This document shows, one piece after another, positions 5,105 through 9,449 of a stretch of 64,000 nucleotides of DNA. The notes beneath the pieces are model-generated. The model did no database searches, had not been told where the DNA came from, and was given only the letters and a program-made list of their open reading frames with translations. The translations under genes were made by a program, and so were the position numbers. Numbering within the stretch: position 1 is the first letter of the stretch; each line of letters starts with the position of its first letter. Source of the DNA: Escherichia coli (GTDB taxonomy: Bacteria > Pseudomonadota > Gammaproteobacteria > Enterobacterales > Enterobacteriaceae); the NCBI RefSeq assembly GCF_050320075.1, contig NZ_CP190018.1; one strand, 5' to 3'.

Positions 5105-6298
5105 TTAGAACTGGTAGACTAAGCCCACAGCAACGATATCATCGGTAGCGATGCCGTTTGCTTTGTAGAAGTCGTCGTCGTTGTCCAGCAGGTTGATTTT
5201 GTAATCAACGTAGGTGGACATGTTTTTGTTGAAGTAGTAAGTCGCACCAATATCAACGTATTTAACCAGATCTTTATTGGTGTAACGTGGGTCGCCGTTG
5301 CCGTCATGAGCCCAACCACCTAAATCCTTACCTTTAGATTGCAGGTAAGCGATGGACGGGCGTAGGCCGAAGTCGAACTGATACTGAGCAACAACTTCAA
5401 AGTTTTGGGTTTTGTTCGCAATACCACCTCTGTCAATGTCGTTATTGTCTTTTCCGCTGCCATATGCAGTCATATTACGTGTTTCTGCATACATTGCCGC
5501 TAAATAGACATTATTCGCATCATATTTAGCACCGACTGTCCATGCTTCAGCTGTTTCACCACCAGCATATTTATTCGAGCGTTGCTCACCTAAACCAGTA
5601 GCACGTTGGTTATCAGTACGGTCAGAGTTTGAATATGCAGCCCCGAGGCTTAACCCGAAGTCAAAGTCATAGGAAGTGGACATACCGAAACCGTCACCAT
5701 TTTCTTTAGACAGTTTACGATTATTACCATTACCAGAACCTTCTTGATCCCAAAGCCCACCCGATCCTTCATTATTACCCTGATATTGCAGAGCAAAGTT
5801 CAGGCCATCGACCTGACCAAAGAAGCCATTGTTACGGTAGGTTGCAACACCATTAGCACGACCGTTCAGGAAGTTGTCGGCACCAGCATAGGTATCGCCA
5901 CCAAATTCTGGCAGCATATCGGTCCATGCTTCAATGTCATATACGACACCGTAGTTACGACCATAGTCGAAAGTACCATTCTGACCAAAGCCTAAACCTG
6001 CAAATGCCAGACGCGTTGCGGGATTACCTTTGTCGCTTTCAGGACCGTTTGCGCCAATGTTAAATTCCCACTGACCATAACCAGTGAATTGGTCAGCGAT
6101 CTGAGTTTCACCTTTGAAACCGATACGGGCATATGACATGTCGCCATCGCTGCCAGCATCATCAGAGAAGTAGTGCAGGCCCGCTACTTTTCCGTACAAA
6201 TCCAGTTTATTACCATCTTTATTATAGACTTCAGCCGCATTTGCTGCGCCAGCAACTAATAACGCCGGGACCAGCATTGCCAGAACTTTTCTTTTCAT
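5105..6298 (-). CDS. yedS: Outer-membrane general porin, OmpC/OmpF family (YedS), apparently intact
   Basis: Signal peptide [21 protein letters not shown], aromatic/Gly-rich beta-barrel repeats, C-terminal ...VGLVYQF; start taken at the MKRKVL Met (6298) inside the longer ORF 5105..6328. Confidence 0.85.
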
Positions 6299-6610
6299 TA
6301 TGTATTCCCTTGTGATTATAATCTTCATGAATATATCAATAAGTGCCGTTATCCAAAAAAAAGCACATTTGGATACTATTCTATGAAGTTCATTTTATTT
6401 TAAAGATTACATGTAACAAATATATTTAAAAGATTTCAAAATGTTTCTAATCTATTTAATATAATTCAGAATTATGAATTCTAAATATAAATATTCATGA
6501 AAATTATAAATGTATATCAATATGTTATGAGTTGAGCGGAAACATAGGGGGTATCAATGATTGTTGCGCCAAACGGCTGGTGTGATCACGCGCACATTAA
6601 TGAAGGCATA

Positions 6611-6701
6611 AAAAAAGCCGGCATCATGCCGGCCCAAAAAAAATAAACAAGACGATAAAAGGCTAATAACGGAAGCATCATGACACAGAATAATAAAAAG
6701 G
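6611..6701 (-). ncRNA. rseX: Candidate small RNA ending in an intrinsic terminator; position fits RseX, which I recall lying between yedR and yedS
   Basis: Hairpin GCCGGCATGATGCCGGC (6618..6634) flanked by T-runs on the minus strand, in the divergent yedR-yedS intergenic region. 3' end supported by sequence; 5' end placed by assumed ~90 nt length. Confidence 0.4.
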
Positions 6702-6872
6702 TATAATTGTAATCAGTGCTAATATATTGATTGAATGAATTAATAAAGCCGATATCAAAGATAAATAAAATCGCTCAAAACGATTTTTCCTGTATTCACT
6801 GCCGTTGCGCAAAAATTATCTATTTGTTCAAAAAATGATTGAGTCTTGACTGGCTCATCCAATGTGGAAAAA

Positions 6873-6888
6873 TGTGACTTTTATCACA
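6873..6888. promoter_or_regulatory. Consensus CRP-binding site (TGTGA-N6-TCACA)
   Basis: Sequence TGTGACTTTTATCACA read directly; perfect match to both CRP half-sites, upstream of or within the 5' region of yedR. Confidence 0.55.
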
Positions 6889-6926
6889 TAATAGTACTAA
6901 GTCTGAATTTTCCGGGTTATCTCAAA

Positions 6927-7229
6927 ATGGAATACGGTTCGACAAAGATGGAAGAGAGACTCTCTCGCAGCCCTGGCGGCAAATTGGCTTTGTGGGCTTT
7001 CTATACATGGTGTGGCTATTTCGTCTGGGCAATGGCGCGTTACATCTGGGTGATGAGCCGGATCCCTGATGCCCCGGTGTCGGGATTTGAAAGCGATTTA
7101 GGCTCTACCGCGGGAAAGTGGTTAGGGGCACTGGTCGGATTTTTATTTATGGCTCTGGTCGGGGCATTGTTAGGCAGCATTGCCTGGTATACCCGACCTC
7201 GTCCCGCACGTAGCAGACGCTATGAATAA
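6927..7229 (+). CDS. yedR: Small inner-membrane protein YedR
   Basis: ORF 6846..7229 with two predicted TM helices; start uncertain (TTG 6846, GTG 6864, ATG 6927 or ATG 6948). ATG 6927 chosen because the CRP-like site lies upstream of it. Confidence 0.6.
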   Translation: MEYGSTKMEERLSRSPGGKLALWAFYTWCGYFVWAMARYIWVMSRIPDAPVSGFESDLGSTAGKWLGALVGFLFMALVGALLGSIAWYTRPRPARSRRYE

Positions 7230-7268: not shown

Positions 7269-7964
7269 ATGGACTTACAACACTGGCAGACACAGTTCGA
7301 AAACTGGTTGAAAAACCATCATCAGCACCAGGACGCGGCCCATGACGTATGTCATTTTCGCCGCGTCTGGGCTACGGCACAGAAGCTGGCGGCAGATGAC
7401 GATGTCGATATGCTGGTGATTTTAACCGCCTGTTATTTTCACGATATTGTGAGCCTGGCGAAAAATCATCCGCAACGGCAGCGTTCTTCAATCCTGGCGG
7501 CAGAAGAGACGCGTCGCCTGCTCCGTGAAGAGTTCGTGCAATTTCCGGCGGAGAAAATCGAGGCCGTTTGTCATGCCATTGCCGCTCACAGTTTCAGCGC
7601 GCAAATCGCCCCCTTAACAACGGAAGCTAAAATCGTCCAGGATGCGGATCGGCTGGAAGCCCTGGGTGCGATTGGCCTGGCGCGCGTGTTTGCTGTTTCA
7701 GGGGCATTGGGCGTGGCGCTGTTTGATGGTGAAGATCCGTTCGCACAGCATCGCCCGCTTGATGATAAACGCTACGCGCTGGATCATTTCCAGACTAAGT
7801 TGCTGAAGCTACCGCAAACCATGCAAACCGCAAGAGGCAAGCAGCTGGCGCAGCACAACGCGCAATTTTTAGTCGAGTTTATGGCGAAGCTCAGTGCCGA
7901 ACTGGCGGGGGAGAATGAAGGTGTCGATCACAAGGTGATAGATGCGTTTTCACCCGCGGGCTGA
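7269..7964 (+). CDS. yedJ: HD-domain phosphohydrolase YedJ
   Basis: 231-aa product starting [13 protein letters not shown]...; HD motif (YFHDIV) and downstream [12 protein letters not shown]. Confidence 0.9.
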
Positions 7965-8030: not shown

Positions 8031-9449
8031 ATGCAGGAAAATATATCAGTAACCGATTCATACAGCACCGGGAATGCCGCACAGGCAATGCTGGAGAAAC
8101 TGCTGCAAATTTATGATGCTAAAACGCTGGTGGCGCAGCTTAATGGTGTGGGTGAGAATCACTGGAGCGCGGCAATTTTAAAACGTGCGCTGGCGAATGA
8201 CTCGGCATGGCACCGTTTAAGTGAGAAAGAGTTCGCCCATCTGCAAACGTTGCTACCCAAACCACCGGCACATCATCCGCATTATGCGTTTCGCTTTATC
8301 GATCTGTTTGCCGGAATTGGCGGCATCCGTCGCGGTTTTGAATCGATTGGCGGACAGTGCGTGTTTACCAGCGAATGGAACAAACATGCGGTACGCACTT
8401 ATAAAGCCAATCATTATTGCGACCCGGCGACGCATCATTTTAATGAAGATATCCGCGACATCACCCTCAGCCATAAAGAAGGCGTGAGTGATGAGGCGGC
8501 GGCGGAACATATTCGTCAACACATTCCTGAACACGATGTATTACTGGCGGGTTTTCCTTGTCAGCCATTTTCGCTGGCTGGCGTATCGAAAAAGAACTCG
8601 CTCGGGCGGGCGCACGGTTTTGCCTGTGATACCCAGGGCACGCTGTTCTTTGATGTGGTGCGTATTATCGACGCGCGTCGACCGGCGATTTTTGTGCTCG
8701 AAAACGTCAAAAACCTGAAAAGCCACGACCAGGGTAAAACGTTCCGCATCATCATGCAGACGCTGGACGAACTGGGCTATGACGTGGCCGACGCAGACGA
8801 TAACGGGCCGGACGATCCGAAAATCATCGATGGCAAACATTTTCTGCCGCAGCACCGTGAACGCATCGTGCTGGTGGGTTTTCGTCGCGATCTGAATCTG
8901 AAAGCCGATTTTACTCTGCGTGATATCAGCAAATATTTCCCTGCACAGCGAGTGACGCTGGCGCAGCTGCTGGACCCGATGGTCGAGGCGAAATATATCC
9001 TGACGCCGGTACTGTGGAAGTACCTCTATCGATATGCGAAAAAACATCAGGCGCGCGGTAACGGCTTCGGTTATGGAATGGTTTATCCGAACAATCCGCA
9101 AAGCGTCACGCGTACGCTGTCTGCGCGTTATTACAAAGATGGCGCGGAAATTTTAATCGATCGCGGTTGGGATATGGCCACGGGTGAGAAAGACTTTGAC
9201 GATCCGCTGAATCAGCAACATCGCCCACGTCGGTTAACGCCTCGTGAATGCGCGCGTTTAATGGGGTTTGAAGCGCCGGGAGAAGCGAAATTCCGCATTC
9301 CGGTTTCGGACACTCAGGCCTATCGCCAGTTCGGTAACTCGGTGGTCGTACCGGTCTTTGCCGCGGTGGCAAAACTGCTTGAGCCAAAAATCAAACAGGC
9401 GGTGGCGTTGCGTCAGCAAGAGGCACAACATGGCCGACGTTCACGATAA
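8031..9449 (+). CDS. dcm: DNA-cytosine C5-methyltransferase Dcm
   Basis: 472 aa; motif I FAGIGG, catalytic PCQ motif ([11 protein letters not shown]), ENV motif (FVLENVKNL). Confidence 0.95.

Follow-up and report, generated by a model that had tools for sequence, protein, structure and literature searches.

A perfect CRP site upstream of drpB (yedR) in Escherichia coli overlaps two mapped core promoters in a repressor arrangement

At the 5' end of the yedR reading frame of Escherichia coli lies a palindrome that reads as an ideal CRP site, and the locus raises the question of whether these bases encode protein, recruit RNA polymerase or exclude it, and for which of the neighbouring genes. The window, that is, the whole stretch of 64,000 nucleotides that was analysed (NCBI RefSeq assembly GCF_050320075.1, contig NZ_CP190018.1), carries the locus in the order hchA, porin (yedS, ompC-like), rseX, yedR, yedJ, dcm and vsr. 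yedR is now named drpB, and a 100%-identical RefSeq record describes it as 'drpB, cell division protein DrpB' with 93 aa at 6948-7229. The longest possible yedR ORF opens at TTG 6846 (127 aa) and contains in-frame GTG 6864, ATG 6927 and ATG 6948. An earlier note on this DNA, made from the letters alone, had correctly placed the site inside that ORF and upstream of ATG 6927, and had proposed either that ATG 6927 is the true start or that the site marks catabolite control of the divergent yedR/yedS(rseX) promoters, leaving the sign of such control open.

As read from the sequence, the core TGTGACTTTTATCACA (with its flanks, aaaTGTGActtttaTCACAtaa) agrees with both CRP half-sites, TGTGA-N6-TCACA, at 10 of 10 positions, with a 6-bp spacer within a 16-bp palindromic core centred at 6880.5. 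The extended 22-bp site occupies 6870-6891, and its aaa/taa flanks match the 22-bp CRP consensus in part. The perfect match that the earlier note had pointed out is also a rare one, the window containing 2 perfect cores against 0.08 expected from 100 dinucleotide-preserving shuffles, none of which (0/100) reached two copies. Binding has been measured in vitro by Footprint-seq (PMC12871828, a 2026 preprint), in which purified CRP bound taTGTGAtaaaagTCACAttt, the exact reverse complement of the 21-mer at window 6871-6891, with an estimated Kd of about 1.9 nM. Table 1 of that preprint tags the site, at K-12 position 2033477, as '(yedR)', meaning intragenic, and counts it among the few novel high-affinity intragenic CRP sites. 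The label arose because the superseded 121-aa yedR gene model was used; with the drpB model corrected, the site falls between genes and over the promoter. CRP ChIP-seq in ETEC H10407 gave a high-confidence peak in the yedR upstream region, centred at 2210222, with the perfect site (centred at 2210126.5) 95 bp away and a weaker one (2210418.5) 197 bp away. Since the peak centre falls between the two sites, which are 292 bp apart, the in vivo assignment to 6873-6888 is ambiguous, and the authors of the ETEC dataset gave the motif assignment to the weaker site, not to the perfect core.

Published work on K-12 can be carried over to the window directly, as window 6840-6935 is base-for-base identical to K-12 and window position x equals 2040348 minus the K-12 coordinate. 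Using stop-codon scanning, Met-to-Ala mutants and western blots of a chromosomal DrpB-GFP fusion, which migrated as the M22 form, Yahashiri et al. 2020 (PMC7648144) showed that DrpB is translated from 'ATG-22' and not from the annotated GTG-1; by exact alignment to K-12 these codons are window 6927 and window 6864, respectively. A construct beginning at GTG-1 was expressed without inducer and constructs beginning at ATG-22 or ATG-29 were not, which placed the drpB promoter between 6864 and 6927 (PMC7648144). The same study noted that ATG-22 is not preceded by a Shine-Dalgarno sequence. Annotation of the drpB start is discordant, K-12 RefSeq giving ATG-22 (100 aa) and PGAP giving ATG-29 (6948, 93 aa) in other strains, and ATG-29 is the annotated start in all other genera (93 aa or shorter). 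A comparison of homologues found the M29-equivalent ATG conserved almost everywhere and the M22 ATG confined to Escherichia and some Citrobacter. Because ATG-29 is the sole start conserved outside Escherichia and Citrobacter, the 7-residue extension MEYGSTK looks like an addition of the Escherichia lineage. The M29 form of DrpB is functional.

Transcription start sites were taken from SMRT-Cappable-seq of K-12, in which TSSs were clustered within 5 bp. Supplementary Data 2 of that study (PMC6131387) gives reverse-strand TSSs at NC_000913.3 2033469 and 2033449, which correspond to window 6879 and 6899 by verified coordinate transfer. Transcripts from 2033469 cover yedR-yedJ-dcm-vsr in full-length reads, and both TSSs were detected in glucose-minimal and in rich media (PMC6131387). 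A consensus promoter scan carried out before the TSS data were seen had found two plus-strand promoters, P1 and P2 (Table 1), and the mapped starts, 6 and 7 nt after the P1 and P2 -10 hexamers, agree with the positions predicted by the scan. The P1 start base is a T; with 5-bp clustering its +1 could shift by a few bases, leaving the overlap with the CRP site unchanged. From either TSS the native mRNA begins 3' of TTG 6846 and GTG 6864; it lacks both codons, which are thereby excluded as native starts. The TSS mapping that the earlier note had asked for is available in the published capped-RNA data, with starts at 6879 and 6899.

Counted from these starts, the CRP core runs from -6 to +10 on P1, with its centre at +2.5, and from -26 to -11 on P2, with its centre at -18.5. 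The first T of the CRP site is the last T of the P1 -10 hexamer and the final CA of the site begins the P2 -10, so that core promoter elements of P1 and of P2 are both overlapped. Since CRP and RNA polymerase cannot share this DNA, the arrangement is that of an operator. This geometry agrees with the direction of control that has been published: in Li et al. 2021 (PMC8085971), yedRJ appears among the 'novel and validated' operons of the Crp regulon under 'Crp repression', on the basis of transcriptomes from different carbon sources and a crp-null strain, of expression trends, and of a yedRJ promoter fragment positive in EMSA. Detection of both TSSs in glucose-minimal and rich media, where cAMP is low, is compatible with repression, of which it is no test.

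Table 1. Positions of the CRP site, promoters and genes in the window
Feature	Position	Strand	Basis
P1 -35 TTGACT, 16-bp spacer to P1 -10	6846..6851	+	consensus scan; weakly conserved T/CT at the same offset in other genera
P1 extended -10 TGgAAAAAT, hexamer AAAAAT 6868-6873	6865..6873	+	consensus scan and conservation
P1 TSS (K-12 NC_000913.3 2033469, reverse strand)	6879	+	SMRT-Cappable-seq
P2 -35-like TGGAAA, 16-bp spacer	6865..6870	+	consensus scan
P2 -10 CATAAT	6887..6892	+	consensus scan
P2 TSS (K-12 2033449, reverse strand)	6899	+	SMRT-Cappable-seq
CRP-cAMP binding site core TGTGACTTTTATCACA	6873..6888	no strand	sequence, shuffles, Footprint-seq and conservation
drpB (yedR) CDS, 100 aa from ATG-22	6927..7229	+	PMC7648144; K-12 RefSeq 2033119-2033421
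yedJ (HD phosphohydrolase), co-transcribed with drpB	7270..7964	+	annotation, SMRT-Cappable-seq; synteny
dcm, reached by full-length P1 transcripts; vsr next	8031..9449	+	annotation, SMRT-Cappable-seq
rseX sRNA, neighbour outside the CRP element	6610..6699	-	Rfam RF01401, 95.1 bits

For a comparison across species, DrpB homologues were collected, 16 diverse ones were aligned, and 68 loci were taken from species-representative genomes of Escherichia, Citrobacter, Klebsiella, Raoultella, Kluyvera, Enterobacter, Lelliottia, Leclercia, Trabulsiella, Pseudocitrobacter, Atlantibacter, Salmonella enterica subsp. arizonae and diarizonae, Kosakonia, Phytobacter, Silvania and Intestinirhabdus. The conserved GKLALW motif allowed 65 of the 68 loci to be anchored, and a stretch of 75 nt upstream of drpB was scored in each. 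A core matching at least 9 of 10 positions was present in 61 of 65 species loci, and a perfect one in 48 of 65, at an almost constant distance upstream of drpB; in the remainder of these loci, matches of at least 9 of 10 occurred at 10 of 317,831 positions, equivalent to 0.0024 per 75 nt. Information content reached 2.0 bits at 8 of the 10 half-site positions (1.8 at the third base of TGTGA and 1.0 at the last base of TCACA). It fell to 0.2-0.6 bits across the N6 spacer, and most flanking columns had about 0-0.3 bits. Across species, purifying selection thus acts on the half-sites and spares the spacer, and half-sites that are fixed around a free spacer indicate selection on a protein-binding palindrome rather than on codons. 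Of 5426 complete E. coli genomes, 4908 match the 85 bp that surround the site at 95% identity or more. Variants in the Escherichia clade keep both half-sites and have altered spacers, such as TGTGATATTTATCACA and TGTGACTTTCATCACA.

The full site is absent from four of the 65 species loci (L032, L042, L061 and L064), the species being Leclercia adecarboxylata NCTC13032, Enterobacteriaceae bacterium 89, Enterobacter sp. Bisph1 and Kosakonia cowanii. One of these loci, L032, retains the left half-site only (TGTGATTTATTGCCGG), which suggests a recent loss. A natural operator-less variant was also found in E. coli S1-CAM-01-C (L073, 1700-1870), where an IS3-family element abuts drpB at about window 6890; this strain has lost the porin, rseX, P1 and both CRP sites, and has the hybrid gattCAATagtac in place of the P2 -10.

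Conservation of the flanks is uneven. Upstream of the core, A-4, T-3, A-2 and A-1 carry 1.3, 0.8, 1.3 and 1.5 bits, the downstream flank carries 0.4-0.7 bits, and the majority T at -3 suits TATAAT and not the AAA preferred in the flank of a CRP site. A -10-like hexamer ending on the first T of TGTGA was found in 51 of 61 species (TATAAT in 22, AAAAAT in 12 and TATGAT in 5), and at any other offset in at most 17 of 61. This asymmetry of the flanks speaks for a -10 hexamer fused with the CRP core, so that the conserved unit is the P1 -10 joined to the CRP site, which contains the TSS. At the offset of the P2 -10 only 9 of 61 species have a -10-like hexamer, and P2 is accordingly a largely Escherichia-specific addition. 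Further upstream, a 'CT' 27-28 nt before the CRP site (window 6845-6846) carries 0.6-0.7 bits across genera (L003-L070); we read it as a putative weak P1 -35, and it could also belong to the site of another factor. In 17 of 61 species the CRP spacer itself contains a -10-like hexamer (offset +6), which is a perfect -10, TGTGATTATAATCACA, in several Citrobacter (L009-L011, L048 and L055); none of the mapped E. coli TSSs matches this element.

Which gene the site serves can be judged from its neighbours. Most genera share the arrangement porin(-) followed by drpB-yedJ-dcm(+), and downstream synteny (yedJ) is kept in nearly all loci. In Lelliottia, Silvania and Kosakonia another gene takes the place of the upstream porin/rseX, with the distance between CRP site and drpB unchanged, and Kosakonia is also without dcm downstream. 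The porin side has a CRP-like site of its own, TGTGATCACGCGCACA (9/10), at 6581-6596, between the rseX terminator (6610-6635) and the porin gene. Its K-12 variant, TGTGATCAGGCGCACA, is listed for 'yedS' with a Kd of 4.9 nM (PMC12871828), its offset is the same in Escherichia species (L003-L008), and its H10407 version is the one that received the ETEC ChIP-seq motif assignment. The yedS/ompC-like porin gene, at 5105-6298 on the minus strand, is intact here (RefSeq 'porin OmpC', 397 aa), and K-12 yedS is a pseudogene. Taken together, a separate porin-side CRP site and the persistence of the perfect site next to drpB make the latter a drpB promoter element and not a shared divergent element.

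Perfect-consensus CRP sites mostly serve activation in E. coli, and on this ground the palindrome might be expected to recruit RNA polymerase to a downstream drpB promoter of class II (centre at -41.5) or class I (-61.5 or further). There would be space for it, as the site centre and the conserved ATG are 47-69 nt apart in other genera, enough for a class II TSS with a short leader, and a start codon without a Shine-Dalgarno sequence, such as ATG-22, might suit a very short leader. However, the TSSs map to 6879 and 6899 and not near 6922 or 6942, so that the site centre is at none of -41.5, -61.5, -71.5, -82.5 or -92.5 from the two mapped starts; E. coli has no -10-like hexamer at 6909-6916; offsets +36 to +44 hold no conserved -10 (0-4 of 61 loci per offset); and yedRJ is called Crp-repressed on the published expression data (PMC8085971). 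Class I and class II geometries were rejected because of the TSS positions and because no conserved -10 stands at the spacing they require, and we consider activation of drpB from this site improbable. Control directed to the other side, at the rseX and/or the yedS/ompC-like porin promoter, or exerted by an element that the divergent pair shares, is suggested by the position of the site within the 620-bp porin-drpB region, which also contains rseX and is covered by the CRP ChIP-seq peak. However, the site centre precedes the rseX 5' end (6699) by some 181 nt and is some 580 nt away from the porin ATG, there is no conserved minus-strand -10 (plus-strand ATTATA) upstream of the site, the porin has its own CRP site, and the perfect site stays beside drpB in genera that lack the upstream porin and rseX, the latter being detectable only in Escherichia, some Citrobacter and Salmonella. 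Control of rseX from 6873-6888 was rejected on distance and synteny, and the divergent-side reading as a whole is very unlikely. The proposal of the earlier note of a control shared by yedR and yedS(rseX) is therefore retained for yedR and finds no support for rseX and yedS.

Many CRP-bound sites have no measured transcriptional effect, and a decoy or chromosome-architecture role has been proposed for many CRP targets; CRP could likewise bind tightly here with no regulatory consequence. Near-perfect conservation at a fixed position in more than 15 genera, amid randomised neighbouring bases, speaks against such a role, as do the overlap with two mapped core promoters and the Crp-dependent expression change published for yedRJ (PMC8085971), and we give it an equally small chance. 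The remaining reading, that the palindrome is incidental to residues 4-8 of a 121-aa YedR isoform (or 10-14 of a 127-aa one), could appeal to the E. coli frame being open from TTG 6846 and to the finding that, with upstream transcription on a plasmid, GTG-1 can initiate a functional 121-aa protein (PMC7648144). Native transcription starts downstream of both 6846 and 6864, though, the chromosomal fusion protein migrates as the M22 form, in most other genera, which still keep the palindrome, the frame is interrupted by stop codons between CRP site and ATG, and the pattern of fixed half-sites and free spacer is that of protein binding. For the 121/127-aa N-terminus, then, neither native transcription, nor translation, nor a conserved frame was found, and this coding reading is effectively refuted.

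We conclude that 6873-6888 is a real, conserved and functional CRP repressor site. Our preferred reading, to which we give a probability of about 0.8, is that the palindrome is a high-affinity cAMP-CRP operator embedded in the core promoter of drpB-yedJ(-dcm-vsr), where it occludes RNA polymerase at P1 and P2. CRP at 6873-6888 most likely blocks drpB transcription, and we infer that this repression is direct and works by occlusion. In this mechanism the non-coding palindrome would serve as operator for two sigma-70 promoters firing within 20 bp of each other. At high cAMP, as with a poor carbon source or slow growth, CRP would occupy the site and sterically exclude RNA polymerase from P1 and P2, and drpB-yedJ transcription would fall; in glucose or rich medium the site would be empty and both promoters could fire. 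The ancestral, conserved unit would be the P1 -10 fused to the CRP site, with P2 added in the Escherichia lineage. As for the alternatives of the earlier note, both halves stand and the 'either/or' between them does not, the two readings being complementary: ATG 6927 is the true start, given the start mapping in PMC7648144, the position of both TSSs downstream of 6846/6864 and the closure of the frame in most genera, and catabolite control of yedR is supported by the Kd of about 1.9 nM, the EMSA and 'Crp repression' call for yedRJ and the phylogenetic conservation. The evidence says that the sign of this control is repression.

Essentially, the finding was already known, as binding, regulatory call, TSSs and start codon have all been published, and what we add on geometry and phylogenetic footprint is incremental. 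Published experiments supply the start codon, the promoter interval, the TSSs, CRP binding in vitro and the Crp-dependent decrease of expression; the present analysis adds the operator geometry over both promoters, the conservation, and the evidence that the site is linked to drpB. The general view of CRP action is unchanged by an ordinary repressor arrangement that is unusually clean and well conserved. DrpB is a recently recognised accessory protein of the divisome and a multicopy activator of the Rcs pathway, and its native regulation is said to be little known (PMC11709261), a question to which the conserved CRP operator offers a concrete, testable answer. There is also a lesson for annotation, in that the 121-aa yedR model put promoter and operator inside a 'gene' and still propagates in the Footprint-seq table, and the mismatch between PGAP and K-12 RefSeq starts (93 and 100 aa) persists.

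More tentatively, the fusion of -10 and CRP site might be an ancient Enterobacteriaceae module that ties the level of DrpB, and maybe Dcm methylation and Vsr repair through read-through, to cAMP, an idea that we regard as speculative. If it were true, CRP, as a direct repressor, would couple cell division and the balance of mutation avoidance to carbon supply and growth rate, and dcm/vsr dosage would possibly be in part cAMP-dependent. SMRT-Cappable-seq found further TSSs at K-12 2033099 (yedJ-dcm-vsr) and 2032340 (dcm-vsr) (PMC6131387), the former corresponding to window 7249, an internal TSS in the 40-bp drpB-yedJ spacer. Because of these internal starts, any control of dcm/vsr by CRP at the drpB promoter would be only partial. 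Acid stress provides another connection, as yedR ranks within the 20 strongest inductions at pH 4.4 relative to pH 7.6, with a log2FC of 5.3 for RNA and 6.35 for Ribo-seq, and azuC, ybiJ and yhcN are co-induced with it (PMC10746267, Table 3). All four genes have high-affinity CRP sites (Footprint-seq Table 1; the azuC site is in the window), and relief of CRP repression is a possible cause of their co-induction.

Several known systems help to place the drpB site. The only other perfect core in the 64 kb, TGTGATTTGCATCACA, at 56579-56594, lies between azuC and yecR, about 85 nt before the azuC start codon (56678), and is presumably the CRP site of the azuC/AzuCR promoter. azuC (AzuCR/IsrB) is reported to be CRP-repressed. 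Like the drpB site, its core is just upstream of a gene for a small membrane protein, and azuC shares with yedR a place among the top acid-induced genes (PMC10746267); it is nevertheless another gene, and its protein is unrelated to DrpB.

With the class I and class II promoters lac, galP1 and melR, the drpB site shares the protein and the motif, and its match to the consensus is comparable or better; unlike theirs, its centres are at +2.5 and -18.5 rather than -41.5, -61.5 or -71.5, and no conserved -10 stands at activator spacing. Occlusion by CRP has its textbook example at cyaA P2, where the site covers the -10/+1 region, and gal P2 is likewise blocked by CRP bound for gal P1. The drpB site resembles these two in that TGTGA-N6-TCACA overlaps the -10 and the TSS, that CRP alone would suffice with no co-repressor site needed, and that lower transcription at high cAMP is predicted. 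It differs from them in that a single site lies over two close promoters, that the core is perfect (10/10), which is unusual for repressor sites, and that conservation across Enterobacteriaceae extends to the fused -10. A further difference is the target, which is a cell-division/HD-phosphohydrolase(/dcm-vsr) operon and not cAMP or carbon metabolism.
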